Under the pieces are notes generated by a model, which was not told the DNA's origin, did not search any database, and saw nothing but the letters and a program-made list of their open reading frames with translations. This document shows positions 13,909 through 27,907 of a DNA stretch of 64,000 nt, one piece after another. The stretch covers positions 13,823 through 77,822 of the forward strand of contig CAUQSW010000002.1 in the NCBI GenBank assembly GCA_963520895.1. The letters are read 5' to 3'. The first letter of the stretch is position 1; every line of letters starts with the position of its first letter. The translations under genes and the position numbers were made by a program. The stretch is from an uncultured Corynebacterium sp. (GTDB lineage Bacteria > Actinomycetota > Actinomycetes > Mycobacteriales > Mycobacteriaceae).

Positions 13909-14817
13909 CTAAGGCCGATAGAACTGTTCTTTACGCCCCAACCGGTGCAGCTTAAACCACTCCATAAAACCTTTGGGGTCTTTTTGCTGCACCAAGAAAA
14001 ACCAACCAAACCGGGCGTATTCCTGCGGCAATAACCGCCGCATGCCGGGCTGATTCATGAGGTAACCGCGGTTGCGGTACGTGAAAAATCGTTTCCCGGC
14101 ATTATCGGGATACTGGGTGTGCATTTTCCCACCCAAGATGGGCTTGAACTCATCCGAGCCATCTGGATGTAAGTAGGCGGTTTTTAAACAGGTGCCAAAC
14201 GGCAGGCCGGAACGCACCAACCGGCGGTGATACTCCACCTCGTCACCCCGGATAAACAACCGAAAATCTGGCACCCCAATAACTTCTAAGGCATGGGCGG
14301 AAATCAATGCGCCATTAAATAACGAGGCAATACCAGCTAAGAACTCACCGGCTGGTTCTAATTCACTGCGCAGTCTGCGCCACTCTAGACCACGTCGCAG
14401 TGGGAAAGCCAAGCGGTCGGGATCATCTAGATTCACCACGACGGGGGATACTTCTTCGAGTTGGTATTTCACGGCGCAGTCCTGCAATGTGGCCAGCACT
14501 GAGGTGTTTTCTGGGCGACCATCATCGTCAGCACACCACACGGCATCAGCACCTAGGGATAATGCGGTTAAAAACCCCAAAGCGAATCCGCCGGCGCCGC
14601 CTAGGTTGCGGGCGCTGGGTAGATACACCCCGTTATCTAAGGCGGTAACCATGGCTTCGACTTCTGGCTCGCAGCCATTATCCACCACGATCACCCAGGA
14701 TACTGGGCGATTTTGGTTCGCAACCACGGCAAGGGATTGCTGGAGTAAGGCAGCGCGGTTATGAGTGACAATGACAGCTGCGACTTTATCGCTAACAGAA
14801 AGGGGCATGTCAGCCAT
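13909..14817 (-). CDS. glfT1: Galactofuranosyltransferase GlfT1 (GT2)
   Basis: AVIVTHNR, NLGGAGGF, WCADDDG, FIRGDEVEYHRRL. Confidence 0.92.
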   Translation of the reverse strand: MADMPLSVSDKVAAVIVTHNRAALLQQSLAVVANQNRPVSWVIVVDNGCEPEVEAMVTALDNGVYLPSARNLGGAGGFALGFLTALSLGADAVWCADDDGRPENTSVLATLQDCAVKYQLEEVSPVVVNLDDPDRLAFPLRRGLEWRRLRSELEPAGEFLAGIASLFNGALISAHALEVIGVPDFRLFIRGDEVEYHRRLVRSGLPFGTCLKTAYLHPDGSDEFKPILGGKMHTQYPDNAGKRFFTYRNRGYLMNQPGMRRLLPQEYARFGWFFLVQQKDPKGFMEWFKLHRLGRKEQFYRP

Positions 14818-17420
14818 TATCGCACTAATGGGTTGGCAACGTCGAAGTATTTGTCCCCTTGATGAGGGTCAAGGGACATGGCAATAAACGCCTTTTGTTT
14901 CCACCGAGGTGCCAATAATGCCGCTCTATCTTCGGGCGGTGGTTGATGTGTGGCGATCAGTTCGTCGACAAGCGAGCGCACCAACTGCCAATCCAGCCCA
15001 GGCATGCCCGCGAGATTGCCCAGAAACGTAGCGTAAATGCCTTTGTTGCTAAAGGTTGCGTGATCATCGGTGCGCACAATGCCGCGGCCGAGGTCACAGC
15101 GCTTACTGTAGATGCGCAGCCCGGAGAAATCCCGAAATTTAATACCATCTGGGGTAATCAAGGTGTTTTGCCGGTGTGCTTCGATGGCGATGCCATGCTG
15201 CCACATAGTAGGAAGCACATAACCTAATAGCTCACGGGCGTAGCTTGCGAAATCAAATGGCATACCTGATTCCGCAATTGCGGCGGCCGTGATGGCATCC
15301 GCCTGATGCTCCCGCAACAAGGTGCTTAAATCCCGGGTGCGAACGTGCGCGCAACCGGCCACCTCTTTCACAGCTGGCACCAGCTTTGCCACCTCGGCCG
15401 CAATGGTGGGCGTATTCAGGGCGGAATCCCGCGACATATCACGTTTAGTAGAAGTGAGCACCACCCCAATGGCGGTTTTGATATGCCACCGATTGCCGCT
15501 GCTACCTGGGTGATAACTTAAACCCGTGCGCATAGAAAGTGTGGGAATAACCGGCAACGTAGCACCCAAATCCACCGCCTCGGGATAACCCGGCGCGATC
15601 ACATGCTCCCATTGCCACGGATGTACCGGCACCACCTGCAAGGAGGTATCCGGCACCGGAAATTCCTGTTTGAGTAGTGCATCGAAATCGCCGGTCTCTT
15701 CGATCACCCCGGGTGGAAACCCAATGAGTTTCAGATCCACTGGGCGGAAATTCTCTGGCCCGTAGGCTGCGGAATCCGCGAGGTTGAAGCCTTTACGCAA
15801 TTTCGCCAATGGGTGCACATTATGCCCGGTTACCGCCAGTGAATCCGCCAAAACTCCGTGCAAACTCGGCGGAGCGGCTGCTTGTGGGGTTTCGTAGCCT
15901 AAGGCGTGGTAGTGCTTGTATCGCTTATCGACGCTCTGCTTAACCTGCGCTAGATGTTCCACCGCATTATCAATGTCGGCTTGCTTAGGTGTGATTCCAG
16001 TTGCTTGAAACTCCTCTGATGCTGCGATCCGCTGCCGGACGTGTTCTTTTGCCCATAGGGTATCGGGTTGTTCAGAAGTAGTTTGGGGAATGGGGTTGGG
16101 GATGTGCACGTAATCTTGTTCGGTTACTGCACCGGATAGCCGCATGGCAAATACCCGTTTTTGTGGCAGCAATTGAGGCAGCGGTAGGGGTTCCAGCTCG
16201 GTGGGATCAACATTGGCCGCTGCACACAACCCTAGGAGCAAATTAGTAATCATGGGGTAGAGTAGCTTGTCCCGAGCGTCACCTTGTAGCAGTGCGGTTC
16301 CGGCTAAAAAGCTCCAATCTCGCTGCTGGTGAAATTGTGAGCCGGGTACAATTCGGCACCCGCCGTAATCTCGAACTGTTACGGCATACGGCCAGCCGTC
16401 TTTGAGTTCCAGCACCGTATTTTGGGGATGTGGTTCTAAGGCGAATCCGTAGTCTAATAACCGCAAACAGGGTAGTACTAGAATTTCGGCTAATCGATTG
16501 AGCCACTGCACTGGTTGTTTGGCGTAGTGCCGGATAAACAACTCGCCGGTGAGCGGATTAGTGGCGGTTAATGCTGCCACGGGAATCCCCGTGGGGGCTT
16601 GGCGAATGATGGCACCCAGTTGGCTACTATTTTTTAATTTGATACCCGCTAAATCTTGTGCGACCTTAAACGCCGGTGTGTCATCTACGGTATAAGGTGC
16701 AATGGCTGTACGGGCTAAGAGTTTGGTGGCTTCCTTGGCAATAATCGGCCCGGCAATAGCGGTATCAGAAATCCCTCGGATCGCGCCGGTGAGCTGGAAA
16801 TTTACACTGGTTTTAATATCAATATCTTGATACCGCAGTGTTCGAACGCTCATTAATGGTTCTACGTTGATGGTGGTGCTAAGGAGTCGAATGTCATTAT
16901 CAAGTGTCACCCCGTGTTCTAATTGCCACGGATGAACAGGAATGACTGCACAACCTTGTGGTAGTTCTTCTTTTAGTTGCGTGCGCACAGGTTCTGGGAG
17001 CACGCTAAGAACCGGTTGGCCGGTTTGGGTGGTGAGGTGTTCGGGCACCGCCACAAATTTCAGTGGGATAGTTTCTGATTGCTCTGGTAGGTACTTATAG
17101 CCATCAGGTCCTAGCCCAAGGGTGGTTTTGGCGCAGGGATGTTTGGGGTGACCTTCCCAAATTAACTGCTCCATATTCCCCAGTGTGGTGCGGTTTCGAT
17201 AGCGCCGTGCCACTCCGGCACGGGCGCGCTTAAGACCTGCAACGCTATCGGTTAGTTCTGCCAAAGTGCGGTCAAAATTGGTGGCAGAAACGGTGAGATA
17301 GGGACGAACGAATGTGAGGATTTCACCAGGATCATCGGGAGCGTGTGCAAGAATACTGTTGTCGGTGAGAAGTTTTTCTTCCACTAGTGCGCTAAGGAGA
17401 CGATCCCGAATAGAATTCAT
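14817..17420 (-). CDS. Tandem two-domain IucA/IucC (NRPS-independent) siderophore synthetase, CiuE-like
   Basis: NIS motifs occur twice: EGHPKHP/TGHNVHP, PVHPWQ x2, MSVRT/LSMRT, EPHPQN/EAHRQN, RDYGG/RDFSG. Confidence 0.88.
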   Translation of the reverse strand: MNSIRDRLLSALVEEKLLTDNSILAHAPDDPGEILTFVRPYLTVSATNFDRTLAELTDSVAGLKRARAGVARRYRNRTTLGNMEQLIWEGHPKHPCAKTTLGLGPDGYKYLPEQSETIPLKFVAVPEHLTTQTGQPVLSVLPEPVRTQLKEELPQGCAVIPVHPWQLEHGVTLDNDIRLLSTTINVEPLMSVRTLRYQDIDIKTSVNFQLTGAIRGISDTAIAGPIIAKEATKLLARTAIAPYTVDDTPAFKVAQDLAGIKLKNSSQLGAIIRQAPTGIPVAALTATNPLTGELFIRHYAKQPVQWLNRLAEILVLPCLRLLDYGFALEPHPQNTVLELKDGWPYAVTVRDYGGCRIVPGSQFHQQRDWSFLAGTALLQGDARDKLLYPMITNLLLGLCAAANVDPTELEPLPLPQLLPQKRVFAMRLSGAVTEQDYVHIPNPIPQTTSEQPDTLWAKEHVRQRIAASEEFQATGITPKQADIDNAVEHLAQVKQSVDKRYKHYHALGYETPQAAAPPSLHGVLADSLAVTGHNVHPLAKLRKGFNLADSAAYGPENFRPVDLKLIGFPPGVIEETGDFDALLKQEFPVPDTSLQVVPVHPWQWEHVIAPGYPEAVDLGATLPVIPTLSMRTGLSYHPGSSGNRWHIKTAIGVVLTSTKRDMSRDSALNTPTIAAEVAKLVPAVKEVAGCAHVRTRDLSTLLREHQADAITAAAIAESGMPFDFASYARELLGYVLPTMWQHGIAIEAHRQNTLITPDGIKFRDFSGLRIYSKRCDLGRGIVRTDDHATFSNKGIYATFLGNLAGMPGLDWQLVRSLVDELIATHQPPPEDRAALLAPRWKQKAFIAMSLDPHQGDKYFDVANPLVR

Positions 17421-17705: not shown

Positions 17706-18332
17706 ATGTCAGATTATCGGCCAGTATTATGGCCGCCGTTTAGCCTGCACATCCAAGTGGTGGATCTAGAGCTTATCGCAGTTGATGACAGCCATATCCA
17801 AGCCTTGTCCGCCGTAACCTATGAGGACTTCTATGGGCCGGAGAAACCCGACCATGCGTTTATTTGGCTTGAAGGTACTCCCTTGGAATCAGCGAAGTTC
17901 CGTTGGGCGAACCGGGTAAGTATGTCGCCTATGCAGTGGGCACTGGATTTAGTGGCGCTGCGAGGTGACGAGATAGTGGGTGCCATTGACCTTAGAGCCA
18001 CTAATTTTGCAGACACCCGCAGTGTAGAAACTGGTTCCTTTGTGTTCTACCAGCACCAAGGTCACGGGATCGGCACACTGATGAGGCATGCGGTGGCGGT
18101 GTATGCGTTTGACTACCTCGGGGCTACCGAATTAACCACGGCCTGGGCTAAAACCAATCCAGCCTCAGGCGCGGTGTCGCGCAAACTCGGTTACGAGATC
18201 ACCGGCGAGACCCGCGGACCCGGTGGCATGCTCTGCGACGCCGCCACCTTAACCCCCGCTACTTATCGACGCGATCCTCAGGTCACCGTCACCGGTCATA
18301 CCGCTGAGTTACAGCGGTTGCTGGTTGGGTGA
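17706..18332 (+). CDS. GNAT acyltransferase (RimJ/RimL, Rv0802c-like), copy 1
   Basis: WPPFSL, VETGSF..QGHGIGTLMR, NPASGAVSRKLGY. Confidence 0.85.
   Translation: MSDYRPVLWPPFSLHIQVVDLELIAVDDSHIQALSAVTYEDFYGPEKPDHAFIWLEGTPLESAKFRWANRVSMSPMQWALDLVALRGDEIVGAIDLRATNFADTRSVETGSFVFYQHQGHGIGTLMRHAVAVYAFDYLGATELTTAWAKTNPASGAVSRKLGYEITGETRGPGGMLCDAATLTPATYRRDPQVTVTGHTAELQRLLVG
18312..18332 (+). repeat. 21-bp direct repeat, copy 1
   Basis: CAGCGGTTGCTGGTTGGGTGA, identical at 20639-20659; encodes the last codons of GNAT copy 1. Confidence 0.9.
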
Positions 18333-18336
18333 TGGG

Positions 18337-19038
18337 TTATTCTAGTCCCTTTTCTTGGCGCCATTTTTTGATGTAGTCCTTTTCGGCTATTTTGTAGGCA
18401 TCTGCGAGTTTTTGCTCTGCAGGTGAATGGGTGGCGGGGCGGAGTTCTGTTTCTGGCCAGAACCATAGTTTCAGCTGGAAGGGCAAGGTGTCCCAGGTTC
18501 CTTTGCCAGCTGCAAATTCTCCAGGGGTGATCTGGTTGATATGCATGTTGCGGAACTCGTTTAAGCCCCCAGGAGCGGTAGTAACTTCTGCCCGAACACG
18601 CCATGTACCAGGTGGGATTTTAAGCTCCCGTAACTCAGGGTACCTATCAGAAGGTTCGTCTCCCATACCGCCGCCTAAGGTACCTTCCCATTGGTCGGCA
18701 TCTTTGTGCTTTTCAAAGGAGACGGAAACTTCTGACCAGTGCTCAACATCGGAAAAGTCCGCAGGATCCGGGTGTTCATCGCTCACTGTGACTTGCGTGC
18801 CAATTGTGACAGCGACGAAGGGAATCGCATTGCCTAAATTGATAGCGAGAAAATTATCTAGCGAACGCAATAGGGGAATAGAAGTATAGGAAATCCCGTC
18901 TTCTAGTTCTTGGGCTTGTGGGTATTTGGCGTTGGGGTGATCCCAGTCATCGTCCATCAACCATAGGGGTCGGTAAAAAATAGCCCAGGAAGATGTATCG
19001 TCGCACCCAATAGCACCCACTACTGTCTTTGTTGTCAT
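18337..19038 (-). CDS. Putative nuclease inhibitor/immunity protein, copy 1
   Basis: 233-aa acidic protein without signal peptide; ATGA overlap with the nuclease stop; WSEVS, PPGTWRVRA, LWFWP motifs. Function inferred from position. Confidence 0.6.
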   Translation of the reverse strand: MTTKTVVGAIGCDDTSSWAIFYRPLWLMDDDWDHPNAKYPQAQELEDGISYTSIPLLRSLDNFLAINLGNAIPFVAVTIGTQVTVSDEHPDPADFSDVEHWSEVSVSFEKHKDADQWEGTLGGGMGDEPSDRYPELRELKIPPGTWRVRAEVTTAPGGLNEFRNMHINQITPGEFAAGKGTWDTLPFQLKLWFWPETELRPATHSPAEQKLADAYKIAEKDYIKKWRQEKGLE

Positions 19039-20308
19039 GGTACCACCGTTACTGTGTATTTATCGCCTTGCTGCACTTGCTGGTTGCTATAGAATTGTCT
19101 CAAGTGATACCCCTGCTCTCGGTTTCCTTTTAGGCTGACCCACCGAATACTTGCTCCAGCACCACCTTCCAGCGCAGAGTTGAATGGGTATTCATCGCAT
19201 GAAGGCGAATCCATATTATCTGGCGCTGGCTCCTCTGCTTCAAGTCTCCTTTGGTTCATCGGACTACAAGCGACATTCCGGTTGCCGTCATCTCCGGGAG
19301 TGTTTTTGGTCAAAGTGCTTGGTTTCTTTCGGTGATTGATTGCGTAATCAATATGAGCTGCTACTTCGGGGTAGTCCGTGAGTGAAACAACGTAACTGGC
19401 AGCTATATCTGGATTTACGCAGTTCCTAGTTGCACGACTCCACGCCTGCCCACACCGAACTTTTACTGGGCTGCTCGTATTTACCATGCTGACATGATCC
19501 ATATTGGAATCAAATCGAAAATGAATCTCTTTAGCCGGGTCACCATTGAGAGTTTGGGGAATATTGAGTATGTCTTCGCTGATCGTCACGAATCCTATAG
19601 GTCCAATCAGTTCTGATATTTTCAGTGTGCGTAGATTAAATAACTCATGCCCGTCGGGGTGTATCAACTGAAAAGCTATTTCCTCAAATGCATTAGGAGG
19701 TTTTCCCTTTGATTCGCTAATGTAAGCATATCCTCGGGTAATCGTTGTTGTTCTGTTTGATTCCATGTAGTGGTCAAACCGGAAAATGATTTCTCTTTCC
19801 CAACTCACTGGTCGTTCTCCCGGGCATTGTTTCGGGCATGAACCTATTTGCTTCACCCGAAAAACTGAGCATGCTCTAAAACGATTATTTCTATCGCAAT
19901 CAGGAAGAGGGCGAACATCAGGCCCTGGGGAATCCTCGGCTTCTTGAGCTAACTCAGCCTCCAGTTGTTCTATCTCTGCTGGGTTGTCGATAGATTCGAT
20001 TTCGTGCGTTACCTCGACTTCGGGTGATAAATATTCCTCTAGGGTCAACTGCTCCCCAGCTTCTGGTTCAGTGGGGGGGGCACTGGTGCAGATTCTGGAT
20101 TTGTATCAGGTTCGATCTGGGGATCTTGCTCGGGATTGTTTTCGGTGGGAACCTCAAGGTTGGGATCGGGGTTTTTTGGTATTGATTCAGTAGTTACTTG
20201 AGTATCTTCGGGAAGCATGTGTATCTCAGCTGCCCAAGAACTTTCGCTGGTCGTAAAAGCCAGCATGGTCAAAGTAACTACTGTGGTTATGGTTTTGGCA
20301 AAACGCAT
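19035..20308 (-). pseudogene. Secreted NucA/NucB-family DNase, frameshifted at a C8 tract (possibly phase-off)
   Basis: AAGGAG RBS, signal peptide and Pro/Glu-rich linker in 20045-20308; catalytic NR..AC..SCDEYPF..EGG..N..QG in 19035-20048. One extra C at 20073-20080 joins them into about 424 aa. Confidence 0.8.
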
Positions 20309-20638
20309 GACCACTCCTTTGTTAGATGGATTTGCTACAGTTTTGGCTTAAAAACCATTGCTTAAGCTTGTCTATATGATAAGTGCTAAGAAGTTTCACG
20401 TAAATGGTTATTATGTTAAAACTATTTAATATTTATCTTTCTACTCCTCGGATTGGGGTAACGTCAGTCGTTCCGTGGTGTGCTAAAGGTATTTTTAGCT
20501 GTTCAGGACGATTGTGGCGTTGTGCTTAATGTAGTCAGTATCGTAAAAGTCTAATTAAAAGATAAAAATTGGCTGACTCTATAGTGTTGCTGACTTGCAT
20601 CATAGAGTCGAAGGTGAACAGGGAAGTATATTTATTTT

Positions 20639-20659
20639 CAGCGGTTGCTGGTTGGGTGA
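20639..20659 (+). repeat. 21-bp direct repeat, copy 2
   Basis: Identical to 18312-18332. Confidence 0.9.
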
Positions 20660-20664
20660 CCTCG

Positions 20665-21366
20665 TTAGTTGATGCCTCGTTCGTAGTTCCATTTTTTCAT
20701 GTAGGCGCGTTCGGCTAATTCGTACTTGTCGGCATATTCTTGCTCTGCAGGTGAATGGGTGGCGGGGCGGAGTTCTGTTTCTGGCCAGAACCATAGTTTC
20801 AGTTGGAAGGGCAGGGTGTCCCAGGTTCCTTTGCCATCTGCAAATTCTCCAGGGGTGATGTGGTTAATGTGCATGCCGAGAAATTCACCAGTTCCTCCGG
20901 GAGCTTCGGTTGCTTCGGCCCGAACGCGCCAGGTGCCCGGTGGGATTTTAAACTCCCGTAACTCGGGGTACCTATCAGAAGGTTCATCACCCATATCTCC
21001 GCCTAAAGTGCCCTCCCATTCGTCGGCATCTTTGTGCTTTTCAAACTGTACAGAGACTTCTGACCAGTGCTCAACATCGGAAAATTCTGCAAGGGGCGGA
21101 GCTTCATCGCAAAGCATGGCTTGAACCCCGACCGCAATAGCATCGTATTTAAAAGCCGCTCCTAAATTGATGGAAAGGAGATTAGTAAGCGCTCTTAACA
21201 ACGGGATGGGGGCATTGTAGATGCCCATTTCGAGGTCTCTAGGGTCAGGCTTTTGAGCATCAGGATGGCTTAGATCATCATCTACCCGCCAAGGTTGTTC
21301 GTAGAGAATCGACCATAAGTACACTTCAATGCTGGTAATAACACCAACTACTGTCTTTGTTGTCAT
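20665..21366 (-). CDS. Putative nuclease inhibitor/immunity protein, orphan copy 2
   Basis: 233-aa ungapped paralog of 18337-19038. Confidence 0.6.
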   Translation of the reverse strand: MTTKTVVGVITSIEVYLWSILYEQPWRVDDDLSHPDAQKPDPRDLEMGIYNAPIPLLRALTNLLSINLGAAFKYDAIAVGVQAMLCDEAPPLAEFSDVEHWSEVSVQFEKHKDADEWEGTLGGDMGDEPSDRYPELREFKIPPGTWRVRAEATEAPGGTGEFLGMHINHITPGEFADGKGTWDTLPFQLKLWFWPETELRPATHSPAEQEYADKYELAERAYMKKWNYERGIN

Positions 21367-21515
21367 AGCTCCACCAATACTGTGCTGTCTTGTTGGGGGA
21401 CGCTAGTGCCGCCCAAGTTTTCCCGCCAATCCTAGTTAAGAAACGAGTAAAGAGTGGTGTCGAAAAGCAAGCACCTCTCGGCGCATGAGCGGTAATCGCG
21501 CATACAGTCAGGGAT

Positions 21516-22187
21516 ATGGACCCAGATTACGTAGAACAGAATCTTGTTGCTTGTTGGCCGTTATTTGGTTTGCTTATTACCACTCCTGACCTAGTGCTGC
21601 GGGTGGAACGGGATGAGGATATTGTCCGGTTTAGTCAGATAGGTCTAACAGAAATTTATGGCGTTAGTGATCCCGCAGCTGCCCCTGGGTACGCTTTTAG
21701 CTGGGCATTTCATTCTTCCGCGCAGGACATAGCAAAGTTTCGGTGGGGTCGCAGGGCAACATTAACTCCCAAAGACTGGTCGCTGAATTTCGCCGTGCTA
21801 AACCCAACCGGTGACCTGGTAGGCAGCGCGGATTTACGAGGGCGGAATTTCGCTAAAACCCGCAGCATCGAGACCAGCTCGTATGTGCTGCATAAGTTCC
21901 AACGGCAGGGACTCGGCACGCAGATCAGGCAGGCAATTTGCCATTATGGTTTCGCCTATCTCGGCACTACCGTGATGACATCCGGCTGGCAGCTTAGCAA
22001 CCTCGCCTCCCAGCGAGTTTCGGAGAAGCTGGGCTATCAGGTGGTTAAAAAGATTCGGTGTATTGGCGGGCCGCACGGCAAACTACAAGCAGGGGTGCGC
22101 GCCGAGCTGCGGACACAGGATTTCACTCCTACCATTCCCATTGAAGTGTCTGGTCACACCAAAGAAGTAATGAGAATGTTGGTTTAG
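21516..22187 (+). CDS. GNAT acyltransferase (RimJ/RimL, Rv0802c-like), copy 2
   Basis: WPLFGL, IETSSY..QRQGLGTQIR, NLASQRVSEKLGY; paralog of 17706-18332. Confidence 0.85.
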   Translation: MDPDYVEQNLVACWPLFGLLITTPDLVLRVERDEDIVRFSQIGLTEIYGVSDPAAAPGYAFSWAFHSSAQDIAKFRWGRRATLTPKDWSLNFAVLNPTGDLVGSADLRGRNFAKTRSIETSSYVLHKFQRQGLGTQIRQAICHYGFAYLGTTVMTSGWQLSNLASQRVSEKLGYQVVKKIRCIGGPHGKLQAGVRAELRTQDFTPTIPIEVSGHTKEVMRMLV

Positions 22188-26935: not shown

Positions 26936-27907
26936 ATGAAACTCCTTAGGTTACCAATGCTGTTCCTAGGGAGTTTTCTGCTTACTGCCTGTTTCGCCAC
27001 CCAGCCTGCCACTGAGTCTGCGCAGCCGTCGTTTACTGCGTCCTCTGGGCGGCAGCCTGCCGCTGAGAACACTTCGACTGAGCCACTACATGGTATTACC
27101 CTAGAATCCATTGAGGATTTTCCCACCTCGCATCAGATCATTGCAGATAGTGAGCAACCGCTGACGGTGCGCCTAGTCATGGACGTGGAACGTGATTTAC
27201 GTGAATACCAAGATGAGGTAGCGGATTTAAGCTCCGTGGCCTCTGTGATGGTGCAGTTAGCGGATTCCGAACAGCTAGGGCAGCTGAGCACGACGCAGTA
27301 TGCGCAGCGTGCTACCGAAGCGGTTAAACTGTTCGGTGACCATGTTGATATTTGGGAAATTGGTAATGAGCTCAACGGGGACTGGGTGGGTAAATCACCT
27401 GCGGAAATCAATGCAAAAGTAGTGGCTGCCCACCAGGTGATAACCGCTAATGGTGGGCAAACAGCGCTTACGTTAAATTACTGGTCGAGCCCTGACTGCT
27501 ACGCGCAGCCGTGGGAAGCCACACTTGACTACGCCCGCAGTATGCCGGATGAACTAAAAAGCGTAGATTATATCTTCTTGTCAGTTTATGAAACCGCCTG
27601 TTCACCGCCCCAATATCCCACTACCGGGGAGTTAGGACACACATTGGCTGCGTTAGGGAAAATATTTCCCGATGCCAATTTAGGAATCGGCGAAATCGGC
27701 GCCCAAGGGGTGGAAGACGGCTTAGCCGCAGACCCGAGCCTGGAACAAAAACAAGCCATTGCCCACCGGTATTACGGGATGTACACCGAATTGCGGCAGA
27801 AATTGGGCGACCGATTCGTTGGCGGTTATTTCTGGTGGTACTTCAAACGCGACGTGGTTGATAAACAGGAAGGCCAATCCCTGCTACCCGCCTTAGGGTT
27901 TGACTAG
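26936..27907 (+). CDS. Lipoprotein with putative clan GH-A glycoside hydrolase-like barrel
   Basis: Lipobox LLTA-C, Ser/Thr linker, WEIGNE (acid/base-like) and IGEIG (nucleophile-like) motifs. Confidence 0.65.

Follow-up and report, generated by a model that had tools for sequence, protein, structure and literature searches.

We describe here a nuclease gene and two paralogous genes, A and B, in a 64,000-nucleotide stretch of DNA from an uncultured Corynebacterium sp. (assembly GCA_963520895.1, contig CAUQSW010000002.1, positions 13,823 to 77,822 of the forward strand), hereafter called the window. At 17706-22187 of the window the gene order is GNAT1(+), A(-), nuclease(-), B(-), GNAT2(+), and this locus lies inside the galactan cluster, between an IucA-type (IucA/IucC) gene plus glfT1 and the wzt/wzm genes. 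A first-pass annotation, made from the sequence alone, had proposed a secreted DNase with duplicated immunity genes at this place. The gene order and location that it gave agree with the open reading frames (ORFs) and Pfam matches, as does the overlap of the ATG of A with the nuclease stop codon in an ATGA (19035-19038). The findings presented below suggest that the cassette is likely a Corynebacterium version, new in its details, of the pairing of ComI nuclease with ComJ immunity protein that is already known, with a likely antibacterial function.

Table 1. Features of the nuclease/inhibitor locus, in window coordinates
Feature	Position	Strand	Evidence or remark
GNAT1, Acetyltransf_3 family	17706..18332	+	PF13302 E 3e-12; flanking resident gene, outside the cassette
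Direct repeat, first copy: final 24 nt of GNAT1 and 3' half of A	18309..18782		blastn against the genome, junction alignment
Protein A, 233 aa, ATGA-coupled to the nuclease; predicted inhibitor with ComJ/Nin fold	18337..19038	-	AF2 (AlphaFold) model, 4MQD match, Foldseek
Nuclease downstream piece: cysteine-containing middle domain and C-terminal NucA/NucB domain	19035..20048	-	337 aa; PF14040 at residues 235-334
G8 run (C on the coding strand) in Pro-rich linker; reading-frame break	20073..20080		Length varies across assemblies
Nuclease upstream piece: Sec-type signal peptide (by eye) and acidic Pro-rich linker	20045..20314	-	89 aa; matches the N-terminus of P0012
Direct repeat, second copy: remnant of GNAT1 3' end and 3' half of B	20636..21110		blastn, junction alignment
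Protein B, 233 aa, paralog of A, putative orphan inhibitor	20665..21366	-	68% identity to A, no gaps
Relic of nuclease 3' end, ATGA-coupled to B	21363..21395	-	Final 22 nt: 19 identical to the end of the nuclease in L086
GNAT2, Acetyltransf_3 family, second resident copy, adjoining wzt	21516..22187	+	PF13302 E 9.6e-11

The nuclease gene encodes a NucA/NucB domain and is split at a G8 run

The C-terminal domain of the nuclease was identified as PF14040 (NucA/NucB; E 9e-21, 74.7 bits against a curated cut-off of 23.8). The catalytic DE dyad and the metal-binding Asn are present, with CDEYPF and GNREQG aligning with DEWP and DNRG of NucB (5OMT/6EJS), while the equivalent of NucB His53 falls outside the aligned stretch. 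The corresponding D, E and N residues of NucB are essential according to the available text of PMC5758888. The first-pass annotation had read the gene as a single ORF running from a signal peptide to the NucA/NucB domain, and hence the genome as making a secreted DNase. Neither claim holds in this assembly: the piece with the signal peptide and the piece with PF14040 are in different reading frames, and a frameshift splits the gene at the G8 run (20073-20080). The 3.07-Mb assembly has only 10 C/G runs that are 8 nt or longer, this one included.

Full-length alleles exist in nature, the intact nuclease being 424 aa long. The 90% cluster of the nuclease has 8 members, three of full length (P0012, which is the window's allele, and P0007 and P0014, which represent another) and five shorter calls. 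Three of the latter are of the window's allele (P0009, P0013 and P0010) and two of a third allele (P0008 and P0011, on contigs of 202 and 320 kb), with the same start residue as the window call. From these sequences we infer that the shorter calls are probably broken at the same place as the window gene. Contigs covering the G8 run were found in two of four sequencing runs (X1 and X4), and its length differs from that in the window in both. The X1 contig is letter-identical over 363 nt apart from the run length; at depths of 3 for this contig and 2.1 for that of X4, the differences may be errors. Between this genome and L094, a run of 9 C in the C72 paralog accounts for the sole indel over 2,187 nt. 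Such runs do vary between assemblies, then, but cellular slippage and sequencing error would look alike here. A programmed switch common to the whole family found no support, none of 8 other family nuclease genes having a C/G run longer than 6. As to the window gene itself, ordinary slippage and decay is a good possibility, a little short of an even chance. Reversible phase variation, for which homopolymer slippage at a Gram-positive toxin-secretion locus gives a precedent (PMC9900821, available text), is doubtful, and an assembly error is unlikely. The closest nuclease relative (L032:1740-1830, in G096:C196) is broken too, in the vicinity of short runs of A and T, by decay or assembly error.

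The N-termini of all 8 related nucleases examined resemble Sec signals (by eye and hydropathy), and the intact members of the family are acidic and contain 6-8 cysteines. No Pfam family besides PF14040 was detected in P0012, and the only lead from an Atlas search with the middle domain (0.75) pointed back to this nuclease family. Comparing two nuclease alleles revealed 17 differences in 147 residues of the nuclease domain and 1 in 110 of the middle domain (Fisher p 0.0008, for one allele pair picked after looking). In a metagenome scan with the full-length nuclease, none of 41 pattern matches was confirmed. A Sec-type signal, conserved cysteines and an acidic charge in all intact relatives, together with the lack of an uptake module, would also suit a NucB-like extracellular DNase used for DNA scavenging or biofilm remodelling, NucB itself being a secreted biofilm nuclease blocked by Nin (PMC5758888, available text). 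A would then serve only to guard the producer against enzyme folding in its cytoplasm and the spare copies would be leftovers, an explanation to which we return with the distribution of the inhibitor genes.

Protein A is predicted to share the fold of ComJ/Nin

As the annotation had stated, A and B are both 233 aa long and align without gaps (158/232 identical, 68%), and both lack a signal peptide, no basic n-region with a long hydrophobic stretch being visible by eye or hydropathy. Their 75 differences are distributed as 50 in residues 1-94, 12 in residues 95-209 and 13 in residues 210-233. No sequence match to either protein was found in Pfam, NCBIfam or the PDB. AlphaFold run on the single sequence of A gave a predicted local distance difference test score (pLDDT) of 34.4; a 21-row alignment was used instead, leading to a model with pLDDT 84.8 and a predicted TM-score (pTM) of 0.85. 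Compared with 48,161 representative chains, this model best matched B. subtilis ComJ/Nin (4MQD; Z 9.3, root-mean-square deviation 3.3, 130/133 residues, 8% identity), followed by CgnJ (6I86; Z 7.8) and by a third match at Z 2.5 only. Foldseek also placed 6I86 and 4MQD far ahead of all else (for 4MQD, probability 1.0, E 3.3e-3). A is thus predicted by modelling to adopt the ComJ/Nin fold, at a sequence identity to Nin of 6-8%, and is to be filed as a ComJ-fold protein, not as a PF11033 member.

The structure prediction and co-folding proposed in the annotation were both carried out on A, and while the ComJ/Nin-like fold was recovered, the complex with the nuclease received weak support. Co-folding of A with the last 150 nuclease residues scored 0.54, against 0.01 for the best control (runs 0.89, 0.06 and 0.54; contacts agreeing to 80% or more, partner pLDDT 85 or higher). 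The mark used is reached by 116 of 157 solved pairs and by 2 of 215 mismatched pairs, yet only 18 of the 157 solved pairs reach it with a score of 0.60 or less, as do both mismatches. We consider it very probable that A is a nuclease inhibitor.

Nuclease and inhibitor genes are linked in other genomes

Starting from the nuclease, PF14040 was found at 15 places in 11 of 301 genomes of the genus. All seven genes outside RHS-type loci (three in this genome, two in G096, one in G164 and one in G270) lie directly 5' of an A-family gene; the counts include kin genomes, which are not independent, and no statistical test was applied. The link between A homologs and nucleases, on which the annotation had staked its proposal, is therefore borne out. 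The other 8 of the 15 genes belong to RHS-type loci and are followed by an unrelated-looking 145-aa gene without a match to the A profile.

The A family itself was present in 5 of 300 other genus genomes, in three with the nuclease and in two with fragments only. The A-family profile had no match in 300 other genomes sampled across the order, a first search for relatives returned none in 60, and no family member was found in viral contigs (0 of 20). Starting from the inhibitor, 12 metagenome loci were collected, in which the upstream nuclease was intact in 4, reduced to an end or remnant in 3, absent in 4 and too near the contig start in 1; in the scan of genome contigs, two loci duplicating known DNA were counted once. 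Distant relatives of the nuclease occur on plasmids. Of the genes 3' of three such plasmid nucleases, the Rhodococcus one is unrelated to A and the two Streptomyces ones are faintly A-like (hhalign probability 1.5% and 15%).

These counts bear on the possibility of a competence nuclease/inhibitor pair that trims incoming DNA as nucA-nin does in B. subtilis, with which the cassette shares both the domain family and the pairing of folds. A family that is confined to 5 of 300 other genomes of the genus, occurs in multiple copies and is often broken fits that role poorly, as do a nuclease of 424 aa compared with the 17 kDa of ComI and the lack of DNA-uptake genes among the listed neighbouring ORFs (competence genes were not searched for). 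We regard this explanation as highly improbable.

Several other genes were noted at the related loci. A signal-peptide protein without a Pfam match is encoded between two inhibitor genes in G164 (L029:10282-10998), and another, 41% identical to it, directly after the nuclease on a Rhodococcus plasmid (L104:4426-5172). Proteins of this type are possibly co-secreted partners; tblastn found no match to them in this genome. At the RHS-type loci L043-L049 and L052 (G321, G233, G278, G108, G267, G127, G203), the NucA/NucB tips are followed by similar genes of 143-155 aa without a confident Pfam match, perhaps a second immunity family. At L096:842-1141, a stand-alone C-terminal nuclease fragment lies directly 3' of an inhibitor gene and resembles an orphan toxin tip.

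Inhibitor genes outnumber and outlast the nucleases

This genome carries seven inhibitor-family copies and three nucleases, all of them broken. One is the window gene; of the other two, the C54 gene is interrupted by transposase-like ORFs and the C88 gene is reduced to a remnant. Nucleases are likewise broken in one of two cases in G096 and in the single case in G270. Another assembly of the species, with flanks 93-97% identical, contains four intact pairs (L090, L091, L093 and L095), and the C19 and C72 sites, which hold only the inhibitor in this genome, hold an intact pair there. Orphan inhibitors stand at C19, C22 and C72. The ratio of non-synonymous to synonymous substitution rates (dN/dS) was 0.23, 0.19 and 0.11 among three C22-type copies without an adjacent nuclease in three assemblies, 0.10 at C19 and 0.30 at C72 (6 changes only), compared with 0.10 for GNAT1. 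By these ratios, the orphan copies are under purifying selection. At L092, another assembly has a nuclease remnant and an inhibitor, of which this genome, at G000:C4:52099-52356, retains no more than an 87-nt scar from the inhibitor 3' end. The second cassette of this genome (L051, G000:C54:445-3274) is split by two transposase-like ORFs (IS630-like by eye); a WXG100 pair and an EccC-like gene, both recognised by eye, lie some 3 kb away.

The window site is itself variable. A direct repeat of 474 nt with 81% identity spans the GNAT1 end and the 3' half of A, and recurs at the 3' half of B. The relic of a nuclease 3' end preceding B supports the proposal that B is a spare or orphan inhibitor, and a similar relic precedes the second inhibitor copy of G270. 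When the glfT1-wzt interval was compared, its content differed by strain, as the annotation had expected of a variable site: L086 has a B-type gene in the position of A, coupled to the nuclease, and on a contig from X3 (a relative about 90% identical) an A-type start is joined to GNAT2, the 2,340 nt holding the nuclease and B being absent. At least 4 of 11 strain variants (P0002, P0016, P0018 and P0022) are A/B mosaics.

With seven inhibitor copies against three broken nucleases, the inhibitors are more numerous and longer-lasting than a scavenging or biofilm-remodelling DNase would lead one to expect. The C22 copy, despite having no adjacent nuclease in three assemblies, keeps a dN/dS of 0.11-0.23, and an arms race would better account for several divergent pairs per strain and for allele differences that cluster in the nuclease domain. 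We therefore hold scavenging to be improbable, though a serious contender. The same distribution, with cassettes gained and lost at unrelated chromosomal sites, nucleases often broken and distant ones on plasmids, could also reflect a selfish element akin to toxin-antitoxin cassettes, spreading from one site to another and then decaying, the signal peptide being incidental. Against this, a signal-peptide-like N-terminus is kept in 8/8 relatives examined, no family member was found in viral contigs and no mobility gene is a constant neighbour, which leaves such a cassette very unlikely.

The GNAT genes are residents of the galactan cluster

GNAT1 and GNAT2 are 39% identical, and on this ground a target-site duplication was rejected. 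GNAT homologs were found in 78 of the 301 genus genomes; among the best 29 loci in other genomes, 26 lie no more than 1.5 kb from glfT1, gtrA, an IucA gene, wzt or wzm, with the nuclease at none of them. The idea that the GNATs are parts of the system was rejected as well, since no non-syntenic nuclease/inhibitor locus contains a GNAT of this type. Contrary to their earlier reading as parts or markers of the system, the two genes here are, judged by sequence and context, a duplicated resident of the galactan cluster and bystanders; across the genus, this site normally carries one GNAT. In the GNAT tree, GNAT2 sits on a long unresolved branch that does not resolve the date of the duplication; in G096, the wzt side of the site lies in an assembly gap. 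Nothing beyond position ties the cassette to galactan synthesis.

Two further genes of the window were also recorded. The one between glfT1 and GNAT1 (14817-17420) encodes an 867-aa protein with two IucA/IucC units of the siderophore synthetase type, and is present at the same site in G096, G013, G261 and G279. The other, a 323-aa ORF at 26936-27907, lacks a Pfam match and begins, judged by eye, like a lipoprotein. The numbers of promoter-like sites (3) and of terminators (4) both fall below the shuffled means, so that the site 62 nt upstream of the nuclease gene is no evidence.

Discussion

The cassette family has the layout of polymorphic toxins, with an N-terminal export signal (by eye), a C-terminal toxin domain and an adjacent immunity gene, as well as their hallmark of orphan immunity genes and toxin 3' remnants (the relic before B, G270, and C19/C22/C72). 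ComI nucleases with ComJ immunity proteins are a described polymorphic-toxin pair, for which Sec (T2SS, type II secretion system) export and actinobacterial toxins are listed (PMC3482391, Zhang et al. 2012, available text). Like Tox-ComI/Imm-ComJ in that text, the family has a larger exported protein that ends in a DE-dyad nuclease, and a gene of the ComJ type comes next. It differs in lacking RHS or HINT domains, in its multi-copy expansion inside one Corynebacterium lineage and in an immunity protein of 233 aa with large insertions that PF11033 does not see; no actinobacterial Imm-ComJ is listed in the available text of PMC3482391. With B. subtilis nucA-nin (comI-comJ) and NucB it shares the nuclease family, the catalytic D/E/N residues, the nuclease-then-inhibitor order and the predicted inhibitor fold (PMC5758888, available text; 4MQD, 5OMT), whereas the Corynebacterium nuclease is about three times longer, with an acidic linker and a middle domain, and the family is patchy and multi-copy, with orphan inhibitors and an identity to Nin of 6-8%. 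The esaD/esaG arrays of S. aureus are similar in that immunity paralogs differing from one another adjoin a nuclease toxin and display conserved blocks and recombinant mosaics (PMC9484751, available text), but EsaD is a type VII substrate and the Corynebacterium nuclease likely Sec-exported, the arrays here have one or two copies, and no test made here relates the folds. Finally, the ABP systems of Gram-positive bacteria, reported in Corynebacterium, also combine a Sec-secreted toxin with a cytoplasmic immunity protein (PMC13460014, available text). The family described here has no adjacent S8 protease motif in a crude scan and is acidic, not cationic; we do not take the cassette to be an ABP system. 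No description of this Corynebacterium family was found in the part of the literature that was searched.

We favour, as fairly probable, a model in which the intact allele is a Sec-exported DNase that is checked by A and harms close relatives without the matching inhibitor, while strains lose or switch off the nuclease and keep the inhibitors. In this model, A would act as a cytoplasmic Nin/ComJ-fold inhibitor that restrains the NucA/NucB (ComI-type) DNase inside the producer. Once exported by Sec, the enzyme would enter neighbouring cells, for which the middle domain is a candidate route, and kill those lacking the inhibitor; such toxicity towards other bacteria is what the sequences lead us to infer. 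B would be a spare inhibitor left over from an earlier cassette, orphan inhibitors would defend against the nucleases of other strains, and the window strain would be a non-producer that retains immunity.

Several observations weigh against this model. No uptake domain of a known type was recognised in the nuclease family, and a crude regex scan found no S8-protease motif in the ORFs of 8 related loci or between 10 and 30 kb of the window; with no partner protease evident and acidic proteins, the entry of a Sec-exported DNase into its target is the weak point of the model. The orphan inhibitors might be retained as protection from other nucleases of the same genome, and the A/B mosaics could partly be assembly chimeras. 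All relatives keep the NucA/NucB tip and swapping with unrelated tips was not seen, among few relatives and with no dedicated N-terminal search. As for the inhibitor, none of 21 A-family members matches PF11033, the Pfam ComJ family, which has no match genome-wide at E<=1, and an Atlas lead to ComJ clusters (0.91, 58% of members) has low recognition value. CgnJ (6I86), which has the same ComJ fold, belongs to the crocagin natural-product cluster; it is perhaps a stray immunity gene, or a sign of other uses of the fold.

A bolder version of the favoured model can be put forward as a speculation that we think rather unlikely: a protease-independent family of Sec-secreted DNases for intraspecies warfare, with several allele-specific pairs per strain, a middle domain that crosses the mycomembrane, and a base-run ON/OFF switch that yields mixed populations of producers and immune non-producers.

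The cassette family is gained, lost and shuffled in a few Corynebacterium lineages, with a likely role in competition between close relatives. Few protein weapons between corynebacteria are described in the literature searched. The family would extend ComJ-type immunity to an actinobacterial branch invisible to Pfam, and it offers several natural, divergent nuclease/inhibitor pairs for specificity tests; in 2017 the way in which Nin/ComJ blocks its nuclease was still described as an open question (PMC5758888, available text). Within one species, it may also make the transition from producer to immune non-producer visible at more than one site. Should the enzyme indeed get into cells bounded by a mycomembrane, its entry route would be of general interest.

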